Assembly: GCA_951812955.1 (NCBI GenBank)
Contig: OX638340.1
Span: 2,752,001 to 2,816,000, forward strand
DNA: 64,000 nt
Origin: an uncultured Gemmatimonadota bacterium
GTDB taxonomy: Bacteria; JAAXHH01
Direction of reading: 5' to 3'
The notes under the pieces were generated by a model. That model had not been told where the DNA came from. It saw only the letters and a list, made by a program, of their open reading frames with translations, and searched no databases. Each line of letters begins with the position of its first letter. The stretch's first letter is position 1. The translations under genes and the position numbers were made by a program. This document shows positions 40,407 to 57,130 of the stretch, piece after piece.

Positions 40407-43400
40407 ATGAATCTGCGGCAAAACAAAATGAAGGTGGCATTGGTCCTGTCGGCCTCGTTGATCATGGCCGCGAGTCTTGCCGTCCTCATCCTGCTGAGTA
40501 CCGGCTGGGGCATGAACCTGGTCCGCCAGGCCGTGTTGCGGAATGTCCAGGAACGGCTCAACGGGCAGATTACGATCGAACGGATCGAGCTTGGTTTGAA
40601 GACGCACCTGGCGGTGCGGGGCGTATCTCTAGCCCTGGCGGAAAACCAGGGCGGCACGGAAGTCATGGGAGCGGATGAAATCCGGATTGGCTTCAACGCC
40701 TGGGACGCCCTGGTCGATGATGCGCCTCTCTACAGCGTCGATATCGACGGATTCCGCATGGCCTACTTCGAAGATGCCGCGGGGAGCGGGAAGAATACTC
40801 TGGACCTGCTGCTGGAGAGTCCGGCGCGCGGCGCGGAAGCGGCCGGGTCGTCTGAGGGAGAACAGTCCGGCCTGCCGATCGATCTGCGCGACCTGCGGAT
40901 CCGGAACGGACAGTTCCGCTATTTCGACCCCGCGGATTCCACGGCGGTGAGCGCCGGGGAAGTCGGTTTCCGCGGTGCCCTGCTCCAGCCGTTCAAGGTG
41001 GATGGCGAAATAGCCGCGGGGCATGTGGCTTTCAATATAGGAGGCTATGAAGACGCCGTCACGAATATGGAAGCGGCCGTTTACTTCGAAGAGGATGCCC
41101 TGACCATTCACGATCTGACGATGGAATTCGCCTATGGCCCCCCGATAGCGTTCCACGCGACCGGCGAGATCTCGACAGCGCGCGGGAATCCCGCCACACT
41201 GGATTTCGCCGCGAACGGACAGGTAGGCGCCATTCTGCGCGTCATAGGTTTTGAGAACGACATGCCCGGGATTTTCAGCATGACCGGGTCGCTGCGAAAC
41301 AGCCTTTCCGACCCCGACGTGAAGACCAGATTCATCTCGCCGGTGGTGCGAACGGAGTACGGCCCGTTCAATCTGGCCGCGGTGGACATGGCATATGGGC
41401 AGCATGTACTCACGGTAAGCCGGTTCCGGGGTAAGCATGAGGCCGGATGGATATCGGGAAGGGGCCTGCTCGATTTTAGCGGGGAATCAACCGGATACCG
41501 CCTGCAGTTGGAGTCTCCCGGAATCGCACTCCACGCATTGCCGCCGGTCCTCGCCGACAGCGGGAGCGAATTGGAGGGAGACGTGGGTCTGGCCTTCGAA
41601 ATGGAAGGAAGAGGGTTCGACGGCCCGCCTCGCCGGGCGGATCTGAACGCTTCTTCCTCCCTGGTGAGCATAAACGGCCTGCCGTTGCGGGAAGTCACGG
41701 CAATGGCCGAGTACCGCCGCGGACTGCTCTGGGCCGACCTTAGGGAAGCGTCTTTCCGGGCCGACGCCGAAGGCCGGCTCGGTACGGATGGAGAACTCCA
41801 GCTGACCGGTTCGGTCGACGTGAATGACATTGGAAACCTGCCCCCTCCGCTGGACATCGCCGGGCTTCGAGGTACGGCCAGACTGGATACCTACCTGCTG
41901 GGCACGCTGCGGCGGCCGACCGTCCGACTGGCCGGTTGGGTCAGCGAAATGGCCTATGGCGATGTCCCGTTCGGTGAGACGAAGATCGAGGGATTCCTCG
42001 ACGAAGTACGCAACCTGACGATCAATGCCGTGCTGGACAGGCTGGAGATCTATGCCAGGACGAGCCTGGCCGGGGACCCGGCCGTCACCGGTTATTTCAA
42101 CCTGCATGATCTCAGACTCGGCGATTACCTCTGGGACGATCCCGGCTGGGGGCTGGATGCCATCCTTCGCATGCAGGGCGATATTTCCGGTACCGTTCAG
42201 CAGCCTGTCGTTACCGGAAAGGGTACTGTACGGAGCCTGGTGATCCGAAACGAAGACCTGGGCGGCACCGATCTGGACATGACGATTACCAGGGACCGCC
42301 TGGAATTCTCCATGACGCGAAACCCAGGACCTACTGTTTCGGCGGAAGGGTCCATCGAGCTGACCGGGCAATACCCCTACGATTTGCGGCTCGAACTTCT
42401 TCAGACTTCGCTGTCTCCGCTCCTCTCCATACTCTCCAAAAAACCGATTGAGGGCGGCACCGGCACGTTCAGCGGGAACATACATGCCGTGGGACTGGCC
42501 GGATATCCGGACCGGTCCACCGTAACGGTCTCCCTCGATTCGCTGGGTATCCTGATGGACGGCCGCGAACTGCATTTCGCCGCTCCCTCCACCGTGAAAC
42601 TCGAGAACCAGGTCGTTACCGTGGACGAATTCAGACTGACGGGTGATTTCGGCGAGGTAACGGTCAACGGTACGGCGAGTCTGGCCGCCGAAGGCCGGGT
42701 CGACCTCGAAACCGTTCTGGAGGGCGTACGGCTGGAGTTTTTCTCGCCTTTCCTTGTGTCCGACGGTACGTTCAGCGGCTCCACGGATGGGGTGATCTCC
42801 CTGAGTGGGACCCCGGCCGTCCCCAGGATCAACGGCCTGTTTACTATTTCGGACGTGAGTTACACATTGAACGAAAAAACGAACCTCCTGGGTACGGTGA
42901 CCGGATCGGTGCTCTACTCAGACCGGTCGATCAAGGTCCCCGTCCTGTCCCTGCATACCCTGCTGGGATTGTCGGAGATCAATCTGACCTATCCCATCGA
43001 TCTCGGGTGGGCGCCGGGCGGTCAGCCGGAATCACCTCCGCCCGGTGACAGATACGCGGCCGCCCTGGTCATGGATAACCTGGCCGTAGCGCCCCTGAGG
43101 GAGTTCTTCGAGGTGGTGCCGGCCGATCTGGACGGATACATCAAGGGCAGGATCGACATGAACGGCTCGGTCCGGGACCGGAGCGATCTGGCGGGGAACG
43201 TGGCACTGGATTCACTGAAGCTGTTCGGCCTGCAAAACGAGTTCGTCAATACCCATCCGGTCAGTCTGCAATTCGACGGGACCCATATCCATATGGATTC
43301 GCTGTCCGCCGTGATACGCAATAAAAACCAGCCCGATGACGAGCGGGGCCGCCTTACGTTGAACGGCCGCCTGGCGTACGGCATCGGCGGGACCGAAACG

Positions 43401-45119
43401 GGTGAGTCCGATTTCACCATCCGGGGCGAGGCCTTCCGTATGGACGCCGTCATGGCGCTTACGAATCTCGACCTGCCTCTGGGGGGTAACGTGAATACCC
43501 GGATCGAAGTCACCGGACCGGCATCCGCCCAGGTCATTGACGCCCGCGTTTCCGTGGATCAACTGAGATACAACGAGGCCGTCCTGGACAGCGTAGCCGC
43601 CCATATGGTGCATAGCGGTGGGGAAATCGACATCCGGGATCTGCGAATCCGCAAGGGGGACGATACCATCACCGCCCACGGCATCATACCCTTGGACACC
43701 GGCCGCGACGAACGGACAGGTAATGCGGCCGGATCGGGGGATATCGCCCTGACCGTGGAAGGAGAGGACGTCGACCTGTCGTTCCTGAGTGGTATTGTCT
43801 ACGATCTCGAACGCATCGAGGGTAAGGCCGACATCCGCCTGTCCATCGGTGGAACGCCATCTGCTCCACGGTCGGTTGGCCGGATTTCCGTGCGAAACGC
43901 GGCGCTGCGGTTCCGTGAGATCGAGCCGATGTTCCGGGCCGGCGAACTCGAGATTGAAGTCGACGGAAGTGCTTTCAAGTTAAATCCGGTTGCGATCCGC
44001 GCGGGTGACGGCACGGTCCGTTTGTCCGGCGACATCATGACGGATAATCTGTCCTTTGCCGAAATCAAAGCATATGCCGATTTCAGTCAGGCTGAAGTGG
44101 AGCGCCTCGGTTCGGCATTGCTCGTAATCGACGGATCGCTGGCCTGGACCGGAACCCGGGATCGTTCACGGGTTTACAACGTGGCCGACCCGCTCGTCAT
44201 AAGCGGAGTGGTCATGCATCCGCTTAATCTGGGTGAATTACTGCTCGACAACGCGATCATACGTCCGCAGGACGCGCCCGACCCATTCCTGGAAAGCATC
44301 GCGTTGGACATCGCCGTGGACGTGACCAATCTGGATGTCGAGAACAACGTCGCCCAATTGACCGTCGAAGGGGGCGTGGCCTTCGGCAATACGGCGCAGA
44401 ATCCCCTGGTGACCGGAAATGCCATCGCCAGGGAAGACGGACTGATCAAGTACCTCGGTACCACCTTCGAACTGGATGCCGGCCGGATCGACCTGACCAG
44501 GCGTGTGCCGCTGGAGAGCTTCACCGCGTTGATCGAGTACCCTGTGGCACAGCTCGACCCGGTGCTCACCATACAAGCCCGAGCCCCCCGCGTGCGGGAC
44601 ATATATGGGACCGATTACGAAGTGGAACTGCTCGCGTCAGGACCGGTATCGACGGTAACGCCTCAGTTACGGGCGGTGCCGTTCGACGAATCCAGTCCGA
44701 CCTACTGGGCTTCCGGGCCGCTGGCCGGTCCCGAGGTCATATCCCTGTTGACTTTCGGCATGGCCGGACTCACCTCCCTGGGCACGCCGGATGCGATGGC
44801 CGGTATGGGAAGCAGGGCTATTTTGATGGCCACCGGGGCATCGGCGGAGCGGTTTTTGAAAATCGACCAGGTCCAGATCGAGGGTGATCTTTTCTCGGGA
44901 GGCGGCGACGAAACCGGATCGCCCGCGCAGATTACACTAAGCAAGCGGATCAACCGGCGCGCCCGGGTCAGCTACACCCGTCTGTTCGAATCTTCGGAAT
45001 ACACGTTGCGGGTAGGATACCAGTTGACGGATTTCGTGTTCATCGAGACCTTTTCCGAACAACTGGGCGAACATCCTCAGAATGGGATAGACCTCCGAGT
45101 TAAATTCCGATTTCGCTAA
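40407..45119 (+). CDS. tamB: Translocation and assembly module protein TamB (DUF490/AsmA-like)
   Basis: 1570 aa. N-terminal TM anchor, long beta-rich periplasmic region, and a C-terminal DUF490-like block (RINRRARVSYTRLFESSEYTLRVGYQLTDFVFIETFSEQ...LRVKFRFR). Confidence 0.8.
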   Translation: MNLRQNKMKVALVLSASLIMAASLAVLILLSTGWGMNLVRQAVLRNVQERLNGQITIERIELGLKTHLAVRGVSLALAENQGGTEVMGADEIRIGFNAWDALVDDAPLYSVDIDGFRMAYFEDAAGSGKNTLDLLLESPARGAEAAGSSEGEQSGLPIDLRDLRIRNGQFRYFDPADSTAVSAGEVGFRGALLQPFKVDGEIAAGHVAFNIGGYEDAVTNMEAAVYFEEDALTIHDLTMEFAYGPPIAFHATGEISTARGNPATLDFAANGQVGAILRVIGFENDMPGIFSMTGSLRNSLSDPDVKTRFISPVVRTEYGPFNLAAVDMAYGQHVLTVSRFRGKHEAGWISGRGLLDFSGESTGYRLQLESPGIALHALPPVLADSGSELEGDVGLAFEMEGRGFDGPPRRADLNASSSLVSINGLPLREVTAMAEYRRGLLWADLREASFRADAEGRLGTDGELQLTGSVDVNDIGNLPPPLDIAGLRGTARLDTYLLGTLRRPTVRLAGWVSEMAYGDVPFGETKIEGFLDEVRNLTINAVLDRLEIYARTSLAGDPAVTGYFNLHDLRLGDYLWDDPGWGLDAILRMQGDISGTVQQPVVTGKGTVRSLVIRNEDLGGTDLDMTITRDRLEFSMTRNPGPTVSAEGSIELTGQYPYDLRLELLQTSLSPLLSILSKKPIEGGTGTFSGNIHAVGLAGYPDRSTVTVSLDSLGILMDGRELHFAAPSTVKLENQVVTVDEFRLTGDFGEVTVNGTASLAAEGRVDLETVLEGVRLEFFSPFLVSDGTFSGSTDGVISLSGTPAVPRINGLFTISDVSYTLNEKTNLLGTVTGSVLYSDRSIKVPVLSLHTLLGLSEINLTYPIDLGWAPGGQPESPPPGDRYAAALVMDNLAVAPLREFFEVVPADLDGYIKGRIDMNGSVRDRSDLAGNVALDSLKLFGLQNEFVNTHPVSLQFDGTHIHMDSLSAVIRNKNQPDDERGRLTLNGRLAYGIGGTETGESDFTIRGEAFRMDAVMALTNLDLPLGGNVNTRIEVTGPASAQVIDARVSVDQLRYNEAVLDSVAAHMVHSGGEIDIRDLRIRKGDDTITAHGIIPLDTGRDERTGNAAGSGDIALTVEGEDVDLSFLSGIVYDLERIEGKADIRLSIGGTPSAPRSVGRISVRNAALRFREIEPMFRAGELEIEVDGSAFKLNPVAIRAGDGTVRLSGDIMTDNLSFAEIKAYADFSQAEVERLGSALLVIDGSLAWTGTRDRSRVYNVADPLVISGVVMHPLNLGELLLDNAIIRPQDAPDPFLESIALDIAVDVTNLDVENNVAQLTVEGGVAFGNTAQNPLVTGNAIAREDGLIKYLGTTFELDAGRIDLTRRVPLESFTALIEYPVAQLDPVLTIQARAPRVRDIYGTDYEVELLASGPVSTVTPQLRAVPFDESSPTYWASGPLAGPEVISLLTFGMAGLTSLGTPDAMAGMGSRAILMATGASAERFLKIDQVQIEGDLFSGGGDETGSPAQITLSKRINRRARVSYTRLFESSEYTLRVGYQLTDFVFIETFSEQLGEHPQNGIDLRVKFRFR

Positions 45120-45242
45120 ACCTCTATCTTTGCTTGAAGAAACGACAGGGCACCAGACGGTCAGGCGATTCACATGGTAGAAGGTATGCGTCTTTCCTCG
45201 AAGTCATCCGGTTCCACACGGTGCGGGCCCAATCCATACTGG

Positions 45243-47048
45243 ATGAGGTACCTGGTTGCGGCCTGTCCGCTCCTGGTCCTGTCGATCCTGGTCGCCGCTC
45301 CGGCGCATCCCCAACAGTCCCTCATCGTCGACCGCATCCTGATCGAAGGCAATGCGGCCATCCCGGAAGACCGGATTCTCGATCTGATCGAGACCAGAAC
45401 GGACGGGATACTGCGCAGCGGAAGGATGAACAACGCCGTATGGCGGACCGACCTGGACGCGATCGGGAGTTTCTACATGAACAGCGGATTTCTGGAAGCC
45501 CGGATCCGGTACATTCGCGAGCGTATTGAAGCGGATCGGATCGAGTTGAGGATCGTTATCGACGAGGGCCCCAGATACACCGTGCGCGCGGTCAATCTGC
45601 ATGGCTTCGGATTCCTTGCCGAGGATGAGATCAGGCAAAGCCTTCTGACGAGGGAAGGCCAGGTATTCTACCGGCTGTTCACCGCGACGGACAAGCGCTA
45701 TATCCAGCGTCTCGGCGACCGCAGGGCATTGCTCGACATGACGGTTGACTATCAAGTCGTGCAGCATCCGGAAGATCATACGGTGACGGTCAATTTCCTG
45801 GTCGTCGAAGGCCATCCGATCCGTGTGGGCGACATAAGGGTCGGGGGTCTGAGGAAGACGCAGCGAAACGTGGTGATCCGTGAATTGGAGATCGAATCGG
45901 GAGAGCTGTACGATAACGGGAAAATATCTTTGAGCCAGACCCGGCTCTTCCAGACGGGATTGTTCCGAAGCGTGCGCCTGTCACCCGTGGAAAGCGACAC
46001 CGCCGCCAACGTGCGGGACCTGGTGGTGGAGGTTACCGAACTGCCCGGGGGGGAGGTGAGCTTCGGCGCCGGGTTCGCCTCGGCCGAACACTTCAGGGGC
46101 AGCTTCAGCGTCGCCTACCGGAACTGGCTGGGGCAGGGGATCACCATCGGCTCCAACGGTCAGATCAGCTCGCTATTGCAGCAAGTGGACACCGGAATCA
46201 CGCAGCCGTGGTTGTTCAGGACCCGGACGACGGGCATACTGCGGGCGTTTTACCGTCGTGAGGACCGGACCAGCCACTCCGAGCGCGAAGTAGGAATGTC
46301 CGTAGCGGTCAACCGCGAACTCTCCCGCACGTACCAGAGTCAACTGATCTATACCCTGAAAAACATCGAAGTTTCATCGCTCAGCGAGGAATTGACCGAA
46401 CTGCTTCGAAGCGGTTCGGAACCGGACAGCCTCCGGACCAGGCGCGAGGGCAGTCTGACCGGGGTCGTTACCTACGACACCCGGGACGATATCCTGAACC
46501 CGACGAGGGGATTCTACGGACAATTCCAAAGCAGCCTGGCCAGTCCGCTGCTCGGCAGTTCCACCCAGAATCGCAACTCGGTACTGACGATTATTGCCGT
46601 AGCCCGCAAATACCTGTCCGTTCCCAACGCCCCGGATTTCTCCACTTCCCTGACGTTCAGCTACGTGAAGGCGCTGGACGATAACCGGGTGCCCCTCGAT
46701 CGGAAACTCTTTATCGGCGGCGACCGGTCGGTGCGGGGTTTCAGGATCAACCAGATCGGCCAGCCCGATGGCGGACTGATCGCCATCAGCGCACAGAATG
46801 AAGTCCGTATTCCATTTCCCCTGTTTAGCCTGGCCGTGTTCGCGGACTGGGGCGGAGTTGGAAAGACAGTGGACACTTTCAGCTTCGACGATCTCCTCCT
46901 GGGCTACGGCGGCGGAATAAGGGTAAATTCGCCGATCGGGCTGATTCGAGGCGACGTGGGATTTCACAATCAAAGCAAGATCGACGTGCCAAATTCGAGA
47001 AAGTACGACCGGACCTTCTTCTACTTCGGCCTCGGCCAGGCGTTTTGA
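45243..47048 (+). CDS. tamA: Omp85-family outer membrane protein assembly factor (TamA/BamA-like; POTRA + beta-barrel)
   Basis: Signal peptide MRYLVAACPLLVLSILVAAPAHP. POTRA-like repeats. C-terminal beta-barrel ending ...DRTFFYFGLGQAF (aromatic terminus). Adjacent to tamB. ORF begins at 45174; an internal Met was chosen. Confidence 0.75.
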   Translation: MRYLVAACPLLVLSILVAAPAHPQQSLIVDRILIEGNAAIPEDRILDLIETRTDGILRSGRMNNAVWRTDLDAIGSFYMNSGFLEARIRYIRERIEADRIELRIVIDEGPRYTVRAVNLHGFGFLAEDEIRQSLLTREGQVFYRLFTATDKRYIQRLGDRRALLDMTVDYQVVQHPEDHTVTVNFLVVEGHPIRVGDIRVGGLRKTQRNVVIRELEIESGELYDNGKISLSQTRLFQTGLFRSVRLSPVESDTAANVRDLVVEVTELPGGEVSFGAGFASAEHFRGSFSVAYRNWLGQGITIGSNGQISSLLQQVDTGITQPWLFRTRTTGILRAFYRREDRTSHSEREVGMSVAVNRELSRTYQSQLIYTLKNIEVSSLSEELTELLRSGSEPDSLRTRREGSLTGVVTYDTRDDILNPTRGFYGQFQSSLASPLLGSSTQNRNSVLTIIAVARKYLSVPNAPDFSTSLTFSYVKALDDNRVPLDRKLFIGGDRSVRGFRINQIGQPDGGLIAISAQNEVRIPFPLFSLAVFADWGGVGKTVDTFSFDDLLLGYGGGIRVNSPIGLIRGDVGFHNQSKIDVPNSRKYDRTFFYFGLGQAF

Positions 47049-47108: not shown

Positions 47109-47699
47109 TTATTCGAGATTGGCATGGCGATCGAACATGTCGCCTTCGGTTTCATCGAGCCGCGCCATGATCAGCAGGACGCCGGCATCGAGAACCACAC
47201 CGAGGCTCTGTTCGAACAGCGTGCCCATCGGCTGGCGGGACTGGAGTTCCCGGTCGCCCGACACTTTCGTAGATTTCGGCGTAGGCGCTGGTATGACGAC
47301 GACGATGTCCGCCATCCGGGCGACGGGAGACGCGGAATCCGCGGTCGCTAACGCAACGCGCGCGCCGGCCTCGGCGGCTTTACCGGCATAGTGGACCAGC
47401 CGTTCCGTCACGCCCGATCCCGATCCGATCAGCAGCAAATCTCCCGATCCGATCGCCGGCGTGGTTGTTTCGCCCACCACGTGGACGGGCAGACCGAGTT
47501 GAGCAAGCCGCATGGCGAAGCTCCTCATGACCAGCCCGGAACGTCCCGCTCCTGCGACAAAGACCCGCCGGGCCTCGGTGACTTCCCGTGCCAGCGCTTC
47601 GACCTCTTCGCAGGAGACCTGGTTCAGAGTCCGCCGTATCTCGTCGAGAACTGTCCGCCGGATGTCGTCAAATGGGGAAGGGGATTTCTGGTTATTCAT
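47109..47699 (-). CDS. hxlB: 6-phospho-3-hexuloisomerase (SIS domain)
   Basis: SIS motifs VFVAGAGRSGLVMRSFAMRL and LLLIGSGSGVT; 196 aa. Overlaps the HPS gene. Confidence 0.75.
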   Translation of the reverse strand: MNNQKSPSPFDDIRRTVLDEIRRTLNQVSCEEVEALAREVTEARRVFVAGAGRSGLVMRSFAMRLAQLGLPVHVVGETTTPAIGSGDLLLIGSGSGVTERLVHYAGKAAEAGARVALATADSASPVARMADIVVVIPAPTPKSTKVSGDRELQSRQPMGTLFEQSLGVVLDAGVLLIMARLDETEGDMFDRHANLE

Positions 47700-48345
47700 C
47701 GATTCGATCCATGACCTCCCTGATCCGTCGGATAGCTTGGCCGGGATCGGCGTTTCCGGTAACGTAACCTCCTACGATCACGATATCCGGTTCATGGGGA
47801 ACCAGGCGCTCGATCATCCTGGGATTCAGTCCACCCGCGACGGCCCGCCCCGCCCGTTCAACAACCGCGTTGACCCGGTCGAAACCTTCCAGGGTCCGCT
47901 CGGGATCGCTCTGCCCCTGGTTGTCAAAAGCCGTGTGCACACAGATGTAGTCCAGCCCGGACAGATCCAATTCGCGGGCCAGGAAGACGGCCTCGTCCAC
48001 TTCGCGTGCGGCGATCAGGTCGGCCATGATCTGGCCGCCGGACCGCTTCGCCCGTTCACAGGATTCTCGAAGCGTAGCCTGGTGGGCCGTCCCAAGCACG
48101 GTAACGATATCCGCTCCCGCATCGAATGCGAGGCCCGCTTCCATAGCGCCGGCATCCACGATCTTGAGATCCGCCAGCAACTTCCTGTCGGGATATTCCC
48201 GCTTGATCTCGGAGATGATGTCGATCCCGTAACGGATCAGCAGGGGGGTTCCGAGCTCGATGATGTCCACGTGGACGGCGGTCTGCTCCAACAGGCGGCG
48301 AACCGCCCCCGCTTGAGGCTTGTCCAGGGCGAGTTGGAGCAACAT
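47692..48345 (-). CDS. hxlA: 3-hexulose-6-phosphate synthase (OMP-decarboxylase fold)
   Basis: MLLQLALDKP...VDIIELGTPLLIRYG...KLLADLKIVDAG is characteristic of HPS/KGPDC family members; 217 aa. Confidence 0.75.
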   Translation of the reverse strand: MLLQLALDKPQAGAVRRLLEQTAVHVDIIELGTPLLIRYGIDIISEIKREYPDRKLLADLKIVDAGAMEAGLAFDAGADIVTVLGTAHQATLRESCERAKRSGGQIMADLIAAREVDEAVFLARELDLSGLDYICVHTAFDNQGQSDPERTLEGFDRVNAVVERAGRAVAGGLNPRMIERLVPHEPDIVIVGGYVTGNADPGQAIRRIREVMDRIDE

Positions 48346-48401: not shown

Positions 48402-49178
48402 TTATTCCGGGTGGTCGCCGATACAGACCCGGAGCAGGTTAGGGTGTCCCGGTATATCCTTCGTACCGGCGCCGTAACCGATTTTTCTCAACACCATCTT
48501 TGGCGGAACACCGTGCCCGTCGGCCGTGGCTTTAAGAAACGCGGCGCCGGTCGGAGTGACCAACTCACCCTCGATACCGGTGTGGTAAACTGGCATGTCC
48601 CGCATCAGTTCCAGCGCGCCCGGGGCGGGTACCGGCATAAGACCGTGTGCACAATGGATAAAGCCCCTTCCCATCGGCAGCGCCGAGGCGTACACCATTT
48701 CTATGTCAAGCAGGGCCAGGCCTATGCATGCGCCCACGATGTCGACGATGGCATCGACCCCGCTGACTTCGTGCAGGTGGACCTCCCGTTTCGAAATGCC
48801 GTGTACCTTGCTTTCCGCCGTCGCCAGATGATCGAATACCTGGATCGCCCGCCGCCTGACAGCTCCGTCAATCGTGCTGCCTTCGATTATGGAAGTCAGA
48901 TCTTCGAGGTGCCTTGCTTCTCCGTGGTCGTGGTAAGGCCCGTCCTCGCCGGGTCCCTCGATGATTTCACGACCCTCCGCGGTCTGGACGATGACGTCGA
49001 CCTTGGTCCCGGCGATGTATTGCCGGGTCACTGTTTTCCGGGTGAGCCGATAACCGTCGAGAGGAAGTTTTTGCAGTTCGCCGCTCAGCGCGTCGAAATC
49101 CAGGCCGGCGTCCACCAGTGCGCCGAGGATCATATCGCCGCTGATTCCGGAGAAACAGTCGAAGTACGCTATGGCCAT
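48402..49178 (-). CDS. larC: LarC-like (DUF111) nickel-insertion protein, N-terminal domain only
   Basis: MAIAYFDCFSGISGDMILGALVDAGLDFDAL is the hallmark DUF111 N-terminus. 258 aa, so only the LarC1-like part. No LarC2 is evident nearby. Confidence 0.6.
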   Translation of the reverse strand: MAIAYFDCFSGISGDMILGALVDAGLDFDALSGELQKLPLDGYRLTRKTVTRQYIAGTKVDVIVQTAEGREIIEGPGEDGPYHDHGEARHLEDLTSIIEGSTIDGAVRRRAIQVFDHLATAESKVHGISKREVHLHEVSGVDAIVDIVGACIGLALLDIEMVYASALPMGRGFIHCAHGLMPVPAPGALELMRDMPVYHTGIEGELVTPTGAAFLKATADGHGVPPKMVLRKIGYGAGTKDIPGHPNLLRVCIGDHPE

Positions 49179-49258
49179 GCATCCGCCCCATACATAAATG
49201 ACCGGACGATCTGAGTAAATCGTCCGGCCATGAGAAACTACAGAATAGGCTGGTCCGG

Positions 49259-49996
49259 CTACCTGCGGGAGTCGCCGTCGGCATTCGTTTCACCGCCCGT
49301 TTCCCCGGCGTCGCCCGCGTCACCCGCGTCCGCACCGCCGTCGGCATTCGCTTCACCGCCAGCGTTCCCGGTGTCGCCCATGCCACCCGTGTCCGCGCCG
49401 CCGTCGGCATTCGCTTCACCGCCAGCGTTCCCGGCGTCGCCCATGCCACCCGTGTCCGCGCCGCCGTCGGCGTTCGCTTCACCGTCAGCGTTCCCGGCGT
49501 CACCATCATCGCCAACCCCTTCGGTCATTTCCTCTTCGGTCATTTCGGCTTCTTTCAATTCCAGGGCGACGAGCAGTTCATCCACGTCTTCGGGCCAGGC
49601 TTCGTTCATTTCCAGCGCGATCGTCAGTTGATCGGCAACGAGTTCCATGGCCTCTTCCGCGATGCCCATTTCTCCCAGGCTTTCCTTAAAACTCTTCCCG
49701 TCGTACTCGATCTCACCCCCGGCGACCAATGTGAATTGGGCCAGCAGGTCCGCTTTCCACGCATCCTGGTCGACCCCTTCGAGTTGGCCCTTCAACTGCT
49801 CTTCTTCCACGGCCGCGTCGACGAAATCATCGATCACGCCCATAATCATTTCTTCACCGCCCAGGCGGTCATAGAGGGGACCGTCCATCACCCATTCCAT
49901 GTTCGGGTCGTCATGCTGGGCATGCAGGGGTGCGGCGGTACCGATCAGCAGGAATAGCGCGGGAAGCGCCACGGAAGTCAAAGCCATGCGAATCAT
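49259..49996 (-). CDS. Secreted truncated-hemoglobin (group I trHb) homolog lacking the proximal His, with acidic Gly/Asp/Asn tandem-repeat tail
   Basis: Signal peptide MIRMALTSVALPALFLLIGTAAPLHAQ. LYDRLGGEEMIMGVIDDF...FTLVAGGE colinear with HbN-type trHbs, but Leu replaces the expected F8 His and FV replaces the B10 FY. C-terminal about 21-aa repeats GGMGDAGNAGGEANADGGADT. Confidence 0.55.
   Translation of the reverse strand: MIRMALTSVALPALFLLIGTAAPLHAQHDDPNMEWVMDGPLYDRLGGEEMIMGVIDDFVDAAVEEEQLKGQLEGVDQDAWKADLLAQFTLVAGGEIEYDGKSFKESLGEMGIAEEAMELVADQLTIALEMNEAWPEDVDELLVALELKEAEMTEEEMTEGVGDDGDAGNADGEANADGGADTGGMGDAGNAGGEANADGGADTGGMGDTGNAGGEANADGGADAGDAGDAGETGGETNADGDSRR
49270..49505. repeat. 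About 63-bp tandem repeat x about 3.5 (coding the acidic tail of the trHb-like protein)
   Basis: Repeated unit ccgccgtcggcattcgcttcaccgccagcgttcccgg(t/c)gtcgcccatgccacccgtgtccgcg, read from the sequence. Confidence 0.8.
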
Positions 49997-50159
49997 TTGG
50001 TATTCTCCTTGTTCCCCGGTCGGGGCGCGTTGTTTCAATCCAGACCCAGTTACTCGCCGTATTTCGTCGTACACGTCAACGGGGTTTTACCGGAAGATAG
50101 TGGTAAACCTTTAAAAAATCAACGAATTCTCCCCTGGGCCGACTGGATCGGGTACGCGT

Positions 50160-50990
50160 TTACAGGAGACAGGTGTCGATTACATGAGCGACACCGTCCG
50201 CGTCGTTGGTCGGCGCGACCAGGTCCGCCGCGCGCCGAACCGTGTCCGGCGCGTTCCCCATGGCGACGCCGAGTCCGGCGTATTCGATCATGTCCAGGTC
50301 ATTGAAGTTGTCGCCGATGCTGATCATTCGCTCGGATCCGATACCGTAGCGTTCGCCGAGGAATGCGAGGGACTTCGCCTTGGACACGCCGGCAGGTACG
50401 ATTTCCATGCACCAGTAGTCGCCCACCAGGGTGCTTCGCGACAGGATAATGCCGATCCGGTCGCCGAATTCAGCCAGTTCCGCCTTCAGCTCATGCATGG
50501 ACGATCCCCTTCCGGCCACGGCGATCTGCGCAGGGTCCCGGCTGAGCACCTGTTCCAGGCCGTCCACCTGAAAGACCTTGTCTGCGTTGGCCTCCAGGTA
50601 GCGTTCCCGCCAGCCGTTCGCCGAGCGGGGCAGTTCAACCCAGATGTACCGGCTTTCCGGTACCGGTTCGTAAACGAGGGGATCGTGTCCGCGCCGTTTG
50701 CAGAAATCAACCAGGTCGACTGCCAGTGCCCGCGGCATGTTTACCGCCCTGAGCAAAGGACCGTCGAGGGATTCGAGTATGAGCGCGCCGCTGTGGAAGA
50801 TCAGCGTCGTGGAAGGCGGTACCTTTTCCGCCGCGGCCCGGCCGGAGTTGAGGCTTCTCCCGGTGCAGAGCGCCACGCGCTTTCCCGCCGAGACGGCTCT
50901 TCGAAGGGCCTGGAGCGTTCCGGCGGAGATCTCGCGCCGGGACGTCAGCAGCGTGCCGTCGATGTCGATGGCGATCAGGTCGTAGGACAT
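50160..50990 (-). CDS. Cof-type HAD-IIB family hydrolase (sugar-phosphatase-like)
   Basis: MSYDLIAIDIDGTLL motif I, CTGR motif II region, and GDNFNDLDM motif IV; 276 aa. Confidence 0.8.
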   Translation of the reverse strand: MSYDLIAIDIDGTLLTSRREISAGTLQALRRAVSAGKRVALCTGRSLNSGRAAAEKVPPSTTLIFHSGALILESLDGPLLRAVNMPRALAVDLVDFCKRRGHDPLVYEPVPESRYIWVELPRSANGWRERYLEANADKVFQVDGLEQVLSRDPAQIAVAGRGSSMHELKAELAEFGDRIGIILSRSTLVGDYWCMEIVPAGVSKAKSLAFLGERYGIGSERMISIGDNFNDLDMIEYAGLGVAMGNAPDTVRRAADLVAPTNDADGVAHVIDTCLL

Positions 50991-51008: not shown

Positions 51009-51838
51009 TCAGGGTATGAAGCGCTCGATAGCCCGGGCGACGCCGTCGTCGTCCACGGAAGCCGTGACATGGTCCGCAAGGGCGCGGACTTCGGGTGGTC
51101 CGTTTCCCATGGCCACGCCCAGGCCCGCCACGTCGAGCATTTCCAGGTCGTTCAGGTTGTCTCCCACCGCCATGACCTCGGTGAGATCGATCCCGAGTAG
51201 CTGGGCCAGTCTGCGCAGTCCGTCGCCCTTGGACACGCCAAAAGGCATGACCGTGATGACACTGTAGCAACGATCCCATGGACTGATTTCGAAGACCACG
51301 CTCGTGTTCGGAAGATGTGCCCTGATGTGTGATTCCCGGCATCTGACCCGTTCGTTGCGCTCGGCGACCGTTATGCAGGTGACGTCCTGCCCGAGATAGT
51401 CGCACAGGTCGTCCACCCGGTGAACGCGGTCGGCGTTCTGCGCGGCGTAGTCGATAAACGCGTGGTTGTCCGGATCTAAGGAATCATAGTAGAAGTATCG
51501 CACTTCAGGTAGCGGGCCGTACACGATGGGATGAAACCCGATGCTGCGAAACACGCGCACGGAATCCATCGCGAGATGATTCGAAAGGTGTCGCAAATAC
51601 CTGGCGCGACGATTGGGGGCGTCGTAAATCATGGCGCCGTTGTTCAGCACGTACGGTACGTTCAACGGTAGATGCCGCACGGCCTCTTCAGCGGATGGCA
51701 GGCTACGCCCCGTGCATACCGTGACGAAGACGCCGCGGCCGACCGCGTGCCGCACCGCGTCCGCCGTGGCGACGGTCATGACCTTTCTTCCGTCGATCAG
51801 CGTGCCGTCGATGTCCAGGGCGAGGAGACGATACATGA
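51009..51838 (-). CDS. Cof-type HAD-IIB family hydrolase (paralog)
   Basis: MYRLLALDIDGTLI...VCTGRSL...GDNLNDLEM. ORF extends upstream through the tRNA genes; start set at the conserved Met (276 aa, same length as its neighbour). Confidence 0.8.
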
Positions 51839-51906
51839 TATAACGGATTAAAAAAAACGGAGACTTATGGAAAGCCTCCGCCTTTCGTTTCAGACCTTGT
51901 ACCCGA

Positions 51907-51980
51907 TGGGCGCTAGTGGACTCGAACCACTGACCTCCACGATGTGAGCGTGGCACTCTAACCGGCTGAGCTAAGCGCCC
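51907..51980 (-). tRNA. tRNA-Val (anticodon CAC)
   Basis: Manual fold of the reverse complement: acceptor GGGCGCT/AGCGCCC; D-arm GCTC...GAGT; anticodon stem CCACG/CGTGG with loop CTCACAT; T-arm AGTGG TTCGAGT CCACT; discriminator A. Confidence 0.7.
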
Positions 51981-51986
51981 GGCAAA

Positions 51987-52060
51987 TGGGCCCGCCAGGA
52001 CTCGAACCTGGGACCGTCCGATTATGAGTCGGATGCTCTAACCAACTGAGCTACAGGCCC
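51987..52060 (-). tRNA. tRNA-Met (anticodon CAT; elongator type, tRNA-Ile2/lysidine not excluded)
   Basis: Reverse complement GGGCCTGTAGCTCAGTTGGTTAGAGCATCCGACTCATAATCGGACGGTCCCAGGTTCGAGTCCTGGCGGGCCCA. G1:C72 is paired, so not an initiator. Loop CTCATAA. Confidence 0.7.
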
Positions 52061-52148: not shown

Positions 52149-53915
52149 TCAATCTCCCCGGGCCGATTGCAGCAGGACTTTTTCCTGTTGCTTGAGCTCC
52201 ATGTAAGTGGCCATGGCGTCGTTCAATTCGTCGCTTCGCCCACCCTTTTCCATCTGCTTTATCTGTTCCATGAGTCGGGCCATGCTTTCCTTGAGCCGTT
52301 TCTGTTTTATCCGGATGATATGGTCCCGGGCTCTTTGTTCAAGGTTTACGCCGGAGTCCGATGCATTGATCAGTTCCGTCATCATCCGTGCGGCCTCGTC
52401 ATCGCCGATGGTATCGATCAGGCCGGAAAGGTCGTACGTTCCCTCGCCGCCCAGTCTCGCGAAACACAGCTCGACGATCCGGCGGTACAGGGGGTGCTTG
52501 AAATCCCGAGGTTCCAGTTGGTTTTCGACGAGTTCGGCTATGGCCCGGCCGTCGAGCATGAGTTGCACCAGGTCCCGTTCCACCATCGCGTCGCCGTCCG
52601 GCGCCCCCTCGGCTCGAGGCGCTCGGCGATCGCGTTGCACGGCGCCCGGGCTGCGCAGTTCGGAGGCCAGCAATCCCTGCAGTGCCGGAAACCGGCGTTC
52701 GGCTTCTTCCCGGTACGTTTCCCGGTGGACCAGGTTCGTTGTTTTTCGGATGAGTTCGGTCAGCGTACGAAACACTTCCTCCCGGTCGCCCGAACCCTGG
52801 AGGTTGGCGTGGTGTCCCATGAAATCGGCGATGGAATCGGCGCTGTCGACGAGTTTCATGAACCCGTCCGGCCCGTGTTCTCTCACGTAGGAATCGGGAT
52901 CGTAGTCTTCCGGCAGGCGTACGATCCGGGTCCACAGCCCCGATTCCACGAGGGGTTCGATCGCGCGCCAGGTCGCCCTCACCCCGGCCTGGTCGGAGTC
53001 GTAGACCAGAAACGCCTGCTGTCCGTACCGCGCCAGGAGCCGGGCCTGTTCCCGCGTCAACGCCGTTCCGCAAAGGGCGACCGCCCCGTGGATGCCCTGC
53101 TCGTACAGGCCGAGCAGGTCCATGTATCCCTCCACGACGAGTACCCGTCCCCGTTGCCGCAGCGCATCCCGGGCCTGGTACAGTCCGTAAAGCACCTGGC
53201 TCTTGCGGTAGATGGGGGATTCCGACGAATTCAGATACTTGGGCTGGTCCTCGTCGGAAAGCGCTCTCCCGCCGAATCCGACCACGCGGCCACTGGGCGC
53301 CTGAATGGGAAAGATGAGCCGTTTCCTGAAGGCATCGTAGGTACGCTGCTCGCCGGTCTTGGCCAGTCCGGCCTTAACGAGCAAGGCCGCGTCGATGCCC
53401 TGATTCCGGGCCGCGTTCAGAAGGTCGTTCCATGAATCGGGCGCGTAACCGAGCCCAAAGGACTTGACCGTCTCTTCGGATAGCCCGCGTCGTTCGGTGT
53501 AACGCCGGACGATCGAATCGCGGCCGGCGTTGAGCAGGCGTTCGTGGAAGAACCGGGCGGCGAACCGGGTTACCTGCGCGAGGCTTTCCGCCTCGCTTCC
53601 GGCCTCGCGCTGCCGGTACGTATCGGGTATGGTGATATTGAGGCGGCGGGCGATGTGGCGGACCGCTTCCACGAACGTGACGTTTTCGTGCTCCATGAGG
53701 AAGGAGAATACGTTGCCGCCCTTGCCGCATCCGAAACAGTGGTAAATCTGCCGTTCCGGGTTGACGCTGAAGGAAGGGGTCTTCTCGTCGTGAAACGGAC
53801 AGAGTCCCTTGTAGTTTTTACCCGCTTTTCGCAGCGTGACGTAGTCGGAGACGACGTCCACGATGTCCGCTTGCGACCGGATCGAATCGATGAGCTCTTC
53901 CGGTATCCGCGCCAA
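52149..53915 (-). CDS. dnaG: DNA primase DnaG
   Basis: Zinc-binding CPFHDEKTPSFSV...YHCFGCGKGGNVFSFLME, TOPRIM region (VLVVEGYMDLL), and a C-terminal helicase-interaction domain; 588 aa. Confidence 0.92.
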   Translation of the reverse strand: MARIPEELIDSIRSQADIVDVVSDYVTLRKAGKNYKGLCPFHDEKTPSFSVNPERQIYHCFGCGKGGNVFSFLMEHENVTFVEAVRHIARRLNITIPDTYRQREAGSEAESLAQVTRFAARFFHERLLNAGRDSIVRRYTERRGLSEETVKSFGLGYAPDSWNDLLNAARNQGIDAALLVKAGLAKTGEQRTYDAFRKRLIFPIQAPSGRVVGFGGRALSDEDQPKYLNSSESPIYRKSQVLYGLYQARDALRQRGRVLVVEGYMDLLGLYEQGIHGAVALCGTALTREQARLLARYGQQAFLVYDSDQAGVRATWRAIEPLVESGLWTRIVRLPEDYDPDSYVREHGPDGFMKLVDSADSIADFMGHHANLQGSGDREEVFRTLTELIRKTTNLVHRETYREEAERRFPALQGLLASELRSPGAVQRDRRAPRAEGAPDGDAMVERDLVQLMLDGRAIAELVENQLEPRDFKHPLYRRIVELCFARLGGEGTYDLSGLIDTIGDDEAARMMTELINASDSGVNLEQRARDHIIRIKQKRLKESMARLMEQIKQMEKGGRSDELNDAMATYMELKQQEKVLLQSARGD

Positions 53916-53966
53916 GGCGCTCCCCCGCGTTCCCCCGCCGGTTCCGGGCGGGACTGTTCAAGGTCC

Positions 53967-54548
53967 TCACACCAGGTCGCACGCCTCGGGCGGCATCCAG
54001 TGCGCGTCCCGGTTCTCCCATTTGACGTTGCACCCGATGGGATTGGTGAGCGGCGTCCTGACCGGACGCCCCGCCGTCACGTCGTCAAGGGCTGCTTCCA
54101 GGTCGTTCGCCGTTATGCCGTCCGCGTCTCTGGGACTGTCGACGCCGCGGCCGGTATAGACCAGGCTGCGGTCCGGGTCGAATACATAGAAGTGGGGTGT
54201 TCTGAGGGCGCCATACGCCCGCGCGACATCCTGGGACGCGTCGCGCACGTAGACCCAGGGGAAGCGATGGACATTCATCCGGGAGACCATATGATCGAAA
54301 TCGTCGTCGGGATGCGTGACCTCGCTGTTGGAATTGATCCCGACGAACCGGACTCCGCGGGAGGCATACCTTTCCGCGGAAACGCGGGTGACCTCGTCGG
54401 AACCGGTTACGAAGGGACAGTGGTTGCAGGTGAAAAACACCACCAGCGTCTCCGCGGCGGAGAAATCGTCCAGGCTGTAGGTCCTGCCGTCCGTCGCCGG
54501 AAGCGAGAACCCCGGCGCGGTTTCACCCAATTGCAGCGTAAAGGCCAT
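53967..54548 (-). CDS. Thioredoxin-family protein (AhpC/TSA-like, CNHC motif)
   Basis: [13 protein letters not shown] redox motif. Start set at [14 protein letters not shown] (ORF runs to 54596). Confidence 0.7.
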
Positions 54549-54649
54549 GATCACCCTCCTGTCGAAACGATGTAACGCAATAACGAAGACGCACACCCCG
54601 GCTTGCGCGGTTCGAACCGGTTCGCCGCGGCGTCATCCCGCGAAAGCGC

Positions 54650-57130
54650 TTAATCTCTCATCTCCACGATGGTTACCCCGGTCCCCCCATCGCGCTCTTC
54701 GGCGAAATGGGACGATTTGACCAGGGGATGGTGTTGCAGAAACTCCCGGATCGCGCTGCTCAGGGCCCCGGTACCCTTTCCGTGCAGGATTCGGATTTCG
54801 TTGAGGTCATCGAGGGCGGTCCGGTCGATGCAGCGGTCCACGGCGTCGATGGCCTCCCTGGCGCGATAACCCCTCACGTCCAGTTCCGACAGGGGATCGC
54901 GGGGACGGTCCACCTGTACTTTGACGCGATTCGCGGTAGTCCCGGTTGAGGCCGCCGGATCGGGTTTGTGGAGACTGACTTCGGACCTCCGCGCCGTGAT
55001 CTCCATCCTGCCGGTCTGGATGCGCAGGCGGTCTCCCTGGTCCTGGAGTACCCTGCCCGCCTGCCGCAATGACTCCAGCCATACCTCGTCGCCCGCCGAG
55101 ATCACCTCCCCACCTGTGCGTTCGGGAACGGTATCCCTGGAATCCCCTCCGGCGCGTTTTGGAACCCGGTCCCCGGTATCCGCGTCCGCCGCGGCCGTAT
55201 CGGTATCAATGGCATCGAGCATGCTCTGAAGCAGAACGCGCTGGTCCCTGACCGCCTTGTGTGATTCCTCGACAGCCCCGGACGCGGCCTGTTCCCTGCG
55301 GACCTCGGCCACTGCCCGGTCGATGGCGGCCTGGGCGTCTTTCAGCATCCGGTCCATCTTCTCGCGGCTGGAATCGATCACGTCGCGTTCTTTCTGCTTG
55401 TATGAAGCGATCCGGTCTTCGTAGGACCGTTTCAAGGCATCGAGTTCAACGCGAAGCCGGTCCGCCTGCTCCTGCGCGGCGACGAGCTGTTCGTGCTTCC
55501 GGTCCACGTCCGTGATCAATTCGTCCAGCCGCCGTTCGGGGGTCCCCATGTACCGGGCGGACCGCACGAGGACTTCTTCGGGCATGCCGAGCCGGCGTCC
55601 GATCTCGATGGCGTAGCTGGCCCCCGGGATGCCCTGCCGGAACTGGTAGGTCGGCGCGAGGGTTTCGACGTGGAAGACCATCGATCCGTTTTCCACCCGA
55701 CCGGTCCGGTTGGCGAAGGCCTTGAGCGCGTCAAGGTGGGTCGTCGCCGCCGTGACGGTCCCCCGCAGGGTAAGCGATTCCAGGATGGACATGCCCATGG
55801 CCGCCCCCGCTGAAGGGTCCGTGCCGGCCCCCAGCTCATCGAGGAGCACCAGGGTGTGTTCGTCGGCGTCTTCCAGGATGGTGCGTATATGCCCCATGTG
55901 GGCCGAAAAGGTACTCAGATTCGCCTCGATCGACTGCTCATCCCCGATGTCCGCGAAGATGGAATCGAACACGGCGATATCCGTGTCGTCGTCAGCGGGT
56001 ATGTGCAAACCGGCCTGCGCCATCATGGTCAGGATTCCGATGGACTTCAGGGCGACCGTCTTGCCGCCCATGTTGGGACCGGTAATCACGAGCGTTCGCA
56101 TGGCTTCGCCGATTTCCAGGTTCAGCGGAACGACCGCCTCGCACTGGTCCGCCTGTTGAAGGATGGGATGCCGTGCGTTGCGCAGGATAACGCGGCCGTC
56201 GGAATTCAGCCTCGGCGGTGCTGCCCGCAGGTCAATCGAAAGCACGGCGGCCGCGTGATAGAAGTCGAGCTGGCCCAGGAGGCCGTAGGAAACGGCTATG
56301 GAATCCGCCTGACGGTGTATCTGGTCGGTCAGGGTTAACAGAACGCGTTCGATTTCGCGGCCTTCCTCCACGATCAGTTCGCGCAGCCGGTTGTTGAATT
56401 CGACGACACCCATGGGTTCGATGAATACCGTGGCGCCGCTCGCGGACTGGTCATGGACCACGCCCTGGACCTGGCCGCGGTGATCCATGCGTACCGGGAC
56501 CACGTACCGCCCGTCCCGCATGGTGATGACCGGGTCCTGCAGCGCCCGGGCTCCTGTTTCGGACTGAACGAACCGCTGAAGCCAGTTTCGCGCGCGTTCC
56601 CGCATGGTCTGTTGATCCGCGCGGATCCGGCGCAGCGCGGGACTGGCGTGATCGCGTACGTTGCCGTCGGCGTCGATCGCTTGCCCGATCGACGTTTCGA
56701 TCTCCTGGAAATCTCCCAGCCCGGATGTGAGGGACCGGACATGGGGCTCGGTGGAACGACTCCTCAACCGCAGGCCGAATGCCCGCATGAGGCGGCTTAC
56801 ACGGAGGGTGTCCGCCACGTCCAGCAGGACCTTCGGATCCAACATGGCACCGGCCGCGCCGGCCTGTTCCAGGGCCTGGCCAATGTCTTTGATGCCTCGC
56901 AGGGGAACGGTTTCCCGCTTGTCGAGGAATCCCCGCATCTCGGTGACGGTCTGGAGGTTCTTCCGGATTACGCCGATCTCGTTTGCCGGATCCAGGGACA
57001 TCGCCCGGCGATGACCCTGAACGGAGACCGTCCTTTCCGATACCATCGTCCTGACGGCGTCGAATTCCAGGACCTGCAGCGTGTGGGGAGGTATTCCGGG
57101 TTTCATGTTCGGTCGTTGGTGATTCGCCAC
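54650..57130 (-). CDS. mutS2: Endonuclease MutS2 (MutS domain III/V + Smr)
   Basis: Walker A ITGPNMGGKTVALKSIGIL; DELGAGTDP; C-terminal Smr (RILHGKGTGALSSAIREFL); 826 aa. Confidence 0.9.
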   Translation of the reverse strand: MANHQRPNMKPGIPPHTLQVLEFDAVRTMVSERTVSVQGHRRAMSLDPANEIGVIRKNLQTVTEMRGFLDKRETVPLRGIKDIGQALEQAGAAGAMLDPKVLLDVADTLRVSRLMRAFGLRLRSRSTEPHVRSLTSGLGDFQEIETSIGQAIDADGNVRDHASPALRRIRADQQTMRERARNWLQRFVQSETGARALQDPVITMRDGRYVVPVRMDHRGQVQGVVHDQSASGATVFIEPMGVVEFNNRLRELIVEEGREIERVLLTLTDQIHRQADSIAVSYGLLGQLDFYHAAAVLSIDLRAAPPRLNSDGRVILRNARHPILQQADQCEAVVPLNLEIGEAMRTLVITGPNMGGKTVALKSIGILTMMAQAGLHIPADDDTDIAVFDSIFADIGDEQSIEANLSTFSAHMGHIRTILEDADEHTLVLLDELGAGTDPSAGAAMGMSILESLTLRGTVTAATTHLDALKAFANRTGRVENGSMVFHVETLAPTYQFRQGIPGASYAIEIGRRLGMPEEVLVRSARYMGTPERRLDELITDVDRKHEQLVAAQEQADRLRVELDALKRSYEDRIASYKQKERDVIDSSREKMDRMLKDAQAAIDRAVAEVRREQAASGAVEESHKAVRDQRVLLQSMLDAIDTDTAAADADTGDRVPKRAGGDSRDTVPERTGGEVISAGDEVWLESLRQAGRVLQDQGDRLRIQTGRMEITARRSEVSLHKPDPAASTGTTANRVKVQVDRPRDPLSELDVRGYRAREAIDAVDRCIDRTALDDLNEIRILHGKGTGALSSAIREFLQHHPLVKSSHFAEERDGGTGVTIVEMRD

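Follow-up and report, generated by a model that had tools for sequence, protein, structure and literature searches.

A conserved, exported truncated haemoglobin homologue without the proximal histidine in an uncultured Gemmatimonadota bacterium

We followed up a gene on the minus strand of a 64,000-nucleotide stretch of DNA (the window; contig OX638340.1 of assembly GCA_951812955.1, positions 2,752,001 to 2,816,000) from an uncultured Gemmatimonadota bacterium. A sequence-only reading had described its product (Table 1) as an exported relative of the group I truncated haemoglobins (trHbNs) that lacks the usual haem ligands and ends in an acidic repeat tail. By descent and fold the protein is a trHbN; by the defining histidine at position F8, which it lacks, its membership among the haemoglobins fails. 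Homology, fold and export, taken together, are held with high confidence. In this protein the haemoglobin fold probably serves a new, non-haem purpose, possibly the binding of metal ions. The anatomy of the protein and the evolutionary series in which it stands are solid and unusual; its function we infer from the sequence. The hosts of the family are uncultured marine bacteria, often associated with sponges and corals.

Fold, haem-ligand positions and selection

As a single phmmer query against the PDB, the protein matched group I trHb chains, among them Shewanella benthica trHbN (E=4e-8) and Mycobacterium tuberculosis HbN (E=1e-6). A profile built from 10 family sequences reached E=5e-16, and each of its 24 significant matches was a group I trHb (24/24). 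With the Pfam model Bac_globin (PF01152) the single sequence scored 19.4 bits, under the gathering cut-off of 21, and an NCBIfam scan of the globin protein gave no match. The core of the AlphaFold2 (AF2) model had a predicted local distance difference test score (pLDDT) of 84 when 17 sequences were supplied and of 92-96 with 45. Foldseek ranked M. tuberculosis HbN first for this model (1idr, also 2gkn; TM 0.77, root-mean-square deviation 2.0 Å over 106 residues), and the Gly-Gly hinges expected of the 2-on-2 alpha-helical sandwich are kept (G46-G47 and G93-G94). The proposed trHbN homology was thus borne out by phmmer, by the family profile and by structural superposition on HbN; a globin-profile match does exist, though the single sequence stays below the Pfam threshold.

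In common with characterised trHbNs (M. tuberculosis HbN, 1idr; S. benthica, 7tt9 and 8uzu), the window protein has the 2/2 fold, both Gly-Gly motifs, Phe B9 and the GKxxxE..xxMGI frame of the F helix. It differs from them in having Leu rather than His at F8, Val rather than Tyr at B10 and Leu rather than Gln at E11, together with Trp E7 and Leu CD1. It is, furthermore, Sec-exported and carries an additional invariant N-terminal motif, QHDDPxMxW, and a 95-aa acidic tail.

The F helices align without a gap (trHb GKSMPEAHRSMNI against GKSFKESLGEMGI in the window protein), and this alignment places Leu107 at F8, as the sequence-only reading had claimed. Positions B9-B10 are Phe58-Val59, and the multiple alignment assigns Leu72 to CD1, Trp80 to E7, Leu84 to E11, Gln87 to E14 and Phe103 to F4. 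The HbN numbering, which we take to be offset by +26, presumably pairs Tyr33 with Val59 (B10), Phe46 with Leu72 (CD1), Leu54 with Trp80 (E7), Gln58 with Leu84 (E11) and Phe62 with Phe88 (E15). The distal pocket is wholly apolar (Val B10, Trp E7, Leu E11), and Val59, Trp80 and Leu84 stand where the polar distal network (Tyr B10, Gln E7/E11) would be. The mature protein contains 11 Met, no Cys and a single His, H28 (mature position 2). This His belongs to the N-terminal pre-A segment and not to the F helix; a correctly placed substitute for the proximal His was not found, and the earlier claim stands. Apart from F8, the sole candidates for a haem ligand are H28 and the Met residues.

Not every missing ligand carries the same weight. 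The sequence-only reading had also counted FV in place of FY against haem binding, and B10 is indeed Val59, but this residue is no argument against haem. All eight exported single-domain trHbN representatives (8/8) have F8 His together with Val or Leu at B10, Leu E11 and Gln E14, and among 397 trHbN domains (148 representatives) B10 is Tyr in 120 and Val, Ile or Leu in 213. Because it is a trait of the whole exported clade, F8-His members included, the missing B10 Tyr gives no evidence of haem loss. The polar distal network as a whole is likewise absent from exported F8-His relatives and is not decisive for haem binding. The missing F8 His, unlike the missing B10 Tyr, reads as evidence for haem loss, and canonical haem ligation is very probably gone. 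Some non-His F8 assignments in eukaryote-like tandem arrays are alignment shifts (AHRRLV...) rather than real losses.

Nei-Gojobori dN/dS was calculated for the window against ten orthologous loci with unsaturated dS (up to ~1). The globin core (122-124 codons) gave values of 0.02-0.15, at or below those of the neighbouring enzymes (HAD, 0.08-0.17; LarC-N, 0.11-0.22; HPS, 0.29-0.40; PHI, 0.15-0.34). The His-less globin core is under strong purifying selection, and the gene is therefore no relic. A decaying globin whose repeats are slippage debris would suit the loss of the defining haem ligand and the hypervariable tail. The frame is intact, however, in ~100 clusters and 50 loci, and the promoter-like element, the Shine-Dalgarno sequence and the terminator-like hairpin are conserved; the core dN/dS refutes the pseudogene reading, to which we give next to no credence.

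To our knowledge, no natural globin keeps haem without F8. Globin families without F8 are listed as non-haem, and the recognised non-haem families number three, all of them 3-on-3: RsbR, the phycobiliproteins and photoglobin (PMC8717448). The RsbR N-domain and the other two resemble the window protein in a globin fold without proximal His and presumably without haem. They are cytoplasmic or part of the phycobilisome and have known or proposed ligands (fatty acid, bilin), whereas the window protein is 2-on-2 and exported. A conserved exported truncated haemoglobin without the proximal His would extend the non-haem globins to the 2-on-2 family. Neither such a His-less, exported 2-on-2 lineage nor the QHDDPxMxW motif turned up in our literature searches.

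The same families offer a precedent for non-haem globins with other ligands (PMC8717448), and the window protein could be a periplasmic carrier or sensor whose ligand, an apolar small molecule (lipid, quinone, linear tetrapyrrole or gas), occupies what was once the haem pocket or tunnel, in parallel with the fatty-acid-binding RsbR globin and the bilin-binding phycobiliproteins. The fold is predicted at pLDDT 92-96, and the pocket-lining positions Phe B9, Leu E11, Phe/Ile E15 and Val G8 are apolar and conserved under strong purifying selection. This core conservation may, however, merely reflect folding needs. There is no Cys for covalent attachment of a bilin, no lipid- or pigment-related genes lie nearby, and the invariant polar N-terminus and the acidic tail would be left unexplained. 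We consider such a role unlikely.

Branches of the family and loss of the F8 histidine

A word-indexed search returned 76 clusters, mostly 72-100% identical, of which the named ones are "hypothetical protein" entries of metagenome-assembled genomes labelled Gemmatimonadota or Gemmatimonadetes. Across the relatives the source annotations read "hypothetical protein", "hemoglobin" or nothing. An exhaustive profile search recovered 1972 proteins at E<1e-3, many with a signal or lipoprotein signal, and many of the matches are tandem arrays of 2-12 trHbN domains.

Members that share the N-terminal motif fall into branches distinguished by F8. The QH_H branch (P0225-P0230, P0232, P0237) keeps F8 His, and one of its members is named "group 1 truncated hemoglobin" of Ca. 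Latescibacteria at NCBI; QH_S (P0238) has Ser. The QH_L1 branch (P0098, P0143, P0233-P0236, P0240, P0241) has Leu and a short tail. The window's own branch, QH_L2, combines F8 Leu with Phe at F4, the G-H segment NEAWPEDV and a long acidic tail. F8 was Leu in every L1 and L2 member examined, and F4 was Phe in L2 members. The L1 and F8-His branches have the same N-terminal motif and fold and almost no tail.

A neighbour-joining tree was computed with a bootstrap of 100 from 108 globin-core columns, with the N-terminal motif left out; it is a distance tree of short sequences. In it all motif-bearing proteins form a single clade (100/100) that sits within the exported trHbNs. L1 and L2 group together (94/100) while the Ser-F8 protein P0238 groups with the His-bearing branch (89/100), and because of this split there were apparently two losses of the F8 His, one to Leu and one to Ser, with the N-terminal motif unchanged throughout. 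One lineage therefore holds a series of exported haem-type relatives, a motif-bearing branch near cytochromes that keeps the His, and two His-less derivatives, which makes the fate of a globin fold after haem loss directly testable.

The motif-bearing trHbNs with F8 His (P0225-P0232, P0237) form a sister branch that shares with the window protein the signal peptide, the N-terminus, Trp E7, Leu E11 and Gln E14; they differ in keeping the His, in a very short tail and in a cytochrome/GMC locus instead of the HAD-LarC locus. More distant exported and probably periplasmic trHbNs with one or several domains (P0078, P0114, P0177, P0200 and P0244, among others) and the trHb-pentahaem cytochrome fusions of cable bacteria (PMC11976967) resemble it in their signal peptide or lipoprotein signal, Val or Leu B10, Leu E11 and Gln E14. 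They differ in having F8 His and mostly two Cys (QIC...GGPC), and in lacking both QHDDPxMxW and the acidic tail.

In the large exported trHbN clade with signal or lipoprotein signals (P0078, P0081, P0084, P0114, P0177, P0200, P0244), Val or Leu at B10 and Gln at E14 were observed; most members have the two conserved Cys, possibly a disulfide. Many members are tandem arrays of 2-5 globin domains, and single domains of P0129, P0153, P0154 and P0190 have Trp, Phe or Leu at F8. P0077 (1882 aa), P0080, P0082 and P0083 are very long proteins, tandem arrays of 5-12 trHbN domains in which B10 is Tyr and both E7 and E11 are Gln; their sequence style is eukaryotic-looking.

The mature N-terminus and the acidic tail as candidate metal-binding elements

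The signal peptide, MIRMALTSVALPALFLLIGTAAPLHA followed by Q, opens with a basic n-region, continues with a hydrophobic core and ends in LHA (-3 to -1); it contains no twin arginine. It is predicted to be of the Sec type and to be cleaved after Ala26; hydropathy, the -3/-1 rule and an A-Q junction common to all relatives agree with the Sec signal claimed earlier. Right behind it, all close and distant relatives continue with the junction A-QHDDP(N/D)M(E/M)W. Across 45 sequences, down to 32% identity, the invariant residues of this segment are Q1, H2, D3, D4, P5, M7 and W9 (mature numbering); the only other invariant columns are the hinge glycines G20, G21 and G67 and L119 of helix H. The motif is also present in the F8-His sister branch. 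A scan of JGI metagenome contigs with the DNA pattern of QHDDP[ND]MEW found 24 loci, of which 24/24 encode this globin family, and the idea of the motif as a portable sorting tag on other proteins was rejected on this count. The QHDDPxMxW N-terminus, which the sequence-only reading had overlooked, is by these comparisons the most conserved feature of the protein; it is specific to the family and holds the only mature His.

The motif is modelled as coil with a mean pLDDT of 49-57, and the stretch between it and helix A varies by ~20 residues among branches. These features bear on the possibility that haem b is still held in the apolar pocket and ligated by His28, Met33 or Met37 of the tethered N-terminus; on this view haem in the sister branch would be hexacoordinate, held by both F8 His and an N-terminal ligand, and the window's branch would use the N-terminal ligand only. 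The motif with its sole His is invariant and is shared with the cytochrome-adjacent F8-His branch, the pocket residues B9 Phe, E11 Leu, E15 Phe/Ile and G8 Val are conserved, and cable bacteria offer a precedent for trHb domains in the periplasm (PMC11976967). A linker that varies by ~20 residues is nevertheless at odds with a fixed axial ligand, and the N-terminal segment is modelled with low confidence. No L1 or L2 member has kept the F8 His, which was apparently lost again, to Ser; the F4 Met has become a bulkier Phe in the window's branch, and E10 is acidic or neutral. Haem ligation through the N-terminus seems to us quite unlikely.

Downstream of helix H the protein continues into a Met/Glu-rich linker and an acidic tail. 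Tandem Repeats Finder (TRF) reported a 63-bp period for the tail (3.6 copies, 91% matches, at 49273-49501), which is translated into three 21-aa units and a partial fourth with the unit xGDAGNAGGEANADGGADTGG. The acidic 21-aa repeats encoded by 63-bp DNA units had been described earlier as built of G, D and N; period and unit hold, and the composition is G/A/D/E/N rather than G/D/N alone. The mature chain has 60 Asp+Glu against 8 Lys+Arg, a net charge of about -52 in 219 residues, and AF2 gave the tail no secondary structure (pLDDT ~50). Within the branch, tails are between 18 and 109 aa long. Among proteins whose cores are at least 97% identical to the window's, full tails measure 77-105 aa with many substitutions between them, in keeping with the repeat-number variation expected between strains, and one such protein (P0002) has merely 26 aa beyond helix H. 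The copy number of the EMTEx units of the linker also varies among relatives, from 2 to ~7 (e.g. P0029, P0049, L064).

In a pelagic/deep-sea sub-branch (L041, L050, L051, L052, L058, L062) the place of the G/A/D/N-rich tail is taken by His/Glu repeats of the form (AEGEHEE)n or (EGAEEGHE)n, whose copy number differs between contigs, from ~1 to ~9.

The charge and disorder of the tail would also suit a non-specific periplasmic polyanion that buffers Ca2+/Mg2+, calcium having been proposed earlier, or serves as a solubility or anti-aggregation bristle with no specificity for transition metals. The marine hosts and habitats and the freedom of the tail to vary in length and sequence fit such a role. 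The L1 and F8-His branches, however, share the motif and the fold and are almost tail-less, so that the core function cannot lie in the tail, and softer metals are suggested by the Met spacing of the linker and by the His/Glu repeats in the deep-sea relatives. Pfam and NCBIfam scans of the window protein revealed neither an EF-hand nor any other calcium motif, and nothing speaks for calcium in particular. We regard the polyanion alternative as improbable, although cation binding by the tail is in itself plausible given the His/Glu repeats of the deep-sea relatives.

The protein is a Sec-exported descendant of periplasmic group I truncated haemoglobins that has kept the 2/2 fold and lost the F8 His. 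In the non-haem reading that we prefer, the conserved function is placed in the N-terminal motif because this is the sole element that never varies, with or without the F8 His. A first working part would be the flexible, invariant NH2-Gln-His-Asp-Asp-Pro-x-Met-x-Trp, a putative Cu(II) site of the NH2-Xxx-His type followed by Met and Trp; the predicted mature start, Gln-His, puts His second as in that motif. The Met/Glu linker and the hypervariable, disordered polyanionic tail (His/Glu repeats in deep-sea relatives) would be a second. N-terminus and tail might jointly bind or buffer periplasmic metal cations, with copper the best candidate, and the globin domain would provide a stable framework that may enclose an apolar cavity. 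The (EEMTEG)n linker and the deep-sea (AEGEHEE)n tails would suit soft or borderline metals.

CusF has a His/Met/Met/Trp copper site, a ligand set that resembles the N-terminus of the window protein, and PcoE/SilE are Met/His-rich disordered copper-binding proteins. Periplasmic and extracellular copper-binding elements such as NH2-Xxx-His peptides and hCtr1 resemble the window protein in their ligand repertoire, which in the window's family comprises a predicted N-terminus with His at position 2, an Asp, two Met and a Trp within 11 residues, and Met- or His-rich acidic disordered repeats; the resemblance is one of motif chemistry only, with no sequence homology. A passage of PMC11591581 that cites Gonzalez et al. 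2018 gives NH2-Xxx-His as an established high-affinity Cu(II) motif, and copper is bound by His-Met clusters in the extracellular N-terminus of hCtr1 (PMC8867124, PMC9117721).

Gene context was the other source of the copper idea. In some L1 members and in the pelagic/deep-sea members of L2, either copC or copC with a split copD lies between the globin gene and the LarC-N gene, and copC or copC+copD lies directly 3' of the globin gene in four sub-lineages whose globin cores are 42-57% identical to the window's. This recurrent neighbourhood lends weak support to the copper reading. The globin protein has no homology to CopC or CopD, and the copC/copD partnership is restricted to some sub-lineages; the window contains neither gene.

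Several points weigh against a metal-binding and, above all, a copper-binding role. The idea draws on motif chemistry and neighbourhood alone, and the cleavage site that would expose the motif is a prediction. Gln at an N-terminus is able to form pyroglutamate by cyclisation, in which case the amine of an NH2-X-His site would be blocked; this may apply to Gln1 here. The window's own clade has no copC or copD beside the globin gene, and terminator-like hairpins stand between it and copC in L058 and between it and LarC-N in the window; the copC adjacency may be inherited synteny rather than functional linkage. Furthermore, the adjacent CopC proteins differ in their Cu(II) ligands, and several are without the canonical His1, DGH or both: the N-terminal His and DGH are both present in those of L003 and L028, that of L001 (1535-1909) has Gln for His1, and those of L030 (~7486-7833) and L034 (963-1337) are without both.

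On balance we put the binding of metal cations of any kind at slightly under an even chance, and copper specifically is a tentative suggestion that we hold to be possible but doubtful. Should the N-terminal motif bind copper, the protein would be a new periplasmic metal-handling protein in abundant uncultured marine symbionts. The boldest form of the proposal is a long shot: this would be the first non-haem lineage of the 2-on-2 family, in which a cytochrome-partnered periplasmic haem globin turned haem-free twice, carrying an N-terminal Cu(II)/Cu(I) site and a tunable Met/His/acid-rich tail, and it would constitute a new class of periplasmic copper-binding or copper-buffering proteins.

Gene layout and neighbourhood

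Table 1. Features of the globin gene, its product and the adjacent genes in the window
Feature	Position	Strand	Basis or remark
Coding sequence, 245 aa + stop codon	49259..49996	minus	ORF reading; orthologues in 26 genome loci and 24 metagenome loci
Shine-Dalgarno AAGGAG, 8 nt 5' of ATG (49996)	50005..50010	minus	sequence read; kept in all aligned loci
-35-like hexamer TTGATT of candidate promoter	50117..50122	minus	conserved in HAD-to-globin intergenic alignment
-10-like hexamer TATCTT	50094..50099	minus	near-invariant block TATCTT/TATATT/TATTAT in 18 aligned upstream regions
Terminator-like hairpin, 15 pairs, 28 nt past stop codon, before LarC-N gene	49198..49231	minus	related hairpin in L058
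Signal peptide, residues 1-26, predicted cleavage between LHA and Q	49919..49996	minus	hydropathy and -3/-1 rule
N-terminal motif QHDDPNMEWVMDG, residues 27-39; H28 codon 49913-49915	49880..49918	minus	conservation across family
2/2 group I truncated haemoglobin fold, residues 40-148; Leu107 codon CTG 49676-49678	49553..49879	minus	sequence, profile, AF2, Foldseek
Met/Glu-rich linker EAEMTEEEMTEGVGD, residues 149-163	49508..49552	minus	TRF 15-bp period, 2.3 copies, at 49519-49552
Acidic low-complexity tail, residues 164-245, DSRR end	49262..49507	minus	TRF 63-bp array at 49273-49501
Cof-type HAD	51009-51956	minus	window gene order
Cof-type HAD	50160-50990	minus	window gene order; directly upstream of globin
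Stand-alone LarC N-terminal half (LarC-N; Ni_insertion), 258 aa	48402-49178	minus	matches profile positions 1-234 of 375
HPS-like (OMPdecase/HUMPS)	47692-48345	minus	window gene order
PHI-like (SIS)	47109-47699	minus	window gene order

The promoter-like arrangement TTGATT-17 nt-TATCTT is conserved across loci with globin core identity down to 45-57%. With 8/12 consensus matches it falls below the threshold of a consensus scan, and it was found by alignment of the upstream regions. In L058 a related 19-pair hairpin with a T-run lies between the globin gene and copC. Because terminator-like hairpins separate the globin gene from copC there and from LarC-N in the window, it is apparently an independent, monocistronic-looking transcription unit. 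Operon logic with LarC-N/HPS/PHI or with copCD was accordingly down-weighted: the gene has its own promoter-like element and terminator-like hairpin, and the whole HAD-HAD-globin-(copCD)-LarC-HPS-PHI block is syntenic across the lineage.

A longer GTG-initiated open reading frame from 50074 was dismissed as a mechanical artefact, since the orthologues share the Met start and the Shine-Dalgarno sequence. The long open frames that the repeat array creates in other phases, at 49230-49631 on the plus strand and at 48967-49515 on the minus strand (Pro/Ala/Ser-rich and Arg/Thr-rich), are repeat artefacts and not genes. A structured regulatory leader was rejected: the consensus fold of the 5' untranslated region had essentially no energy or covariation. 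Rfam searches (the whole window at gathering thresholds, the 5' region at permissive E-values) returned two tRNAs and one chance-level match, and no riboswitch. In L012 (~6621-6760) the HAD-globin intergenic region contains several tandem ~27-30-bp units (...CGCGCCGGCGAGCGGGTCTCCTG...) that are absent from other loci.

The HAD-HAD-globin-LarC-HPS-PHI block was found in every His-less member with enough flanking DNA. LarC-N adjoins the globin gene in every His-less locus, and no C-terminal LarC part is adjacent. The HPS and PHI genes, a ribulose-monophosphate pathway pair, overlap by 8 bp and are kept 3' of LarC-N in the window's branch.

The F8-His sister branch lies outside the HAD-LarC locus, near genes for a monohaem cytochrome c, a NapC/NirT-type cytochrome, a Gluconate_2-dh3 subunit and a GMC oxidoreductase. 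The locus looks like a periplasmic electron-transfer module with a truncated haemoglobin. Its globin genes (L031:1926-2435, L032:6926-7450, L037:164-682), whose products have a QHDDPDMEW N-terminus, are always upstream of the cytochrome/Gluconate_2-dh3/GMC genes.

Two adjacent tRNA genes, identified by Rfam at 51907-52060 on the minus strand, overlap the 5' end of the 315-aa HAD reading frame at 51009-51956; the true HAD start is therefore further downstream, probably at the Met of MYRLLALDIDG. Genes for DnaG, a peroxiredoxin and MutS2 lie on that side of the block (52149-57130), and relatives keep the gene order on both sides. The other side, at 40407-47048 on the plus strand and convergent to the globin block, holds an outer-membrane assembly pair of the TAM type whose genes are TamB-like (1570 aa) and Omp85/POTRA (624 aa).

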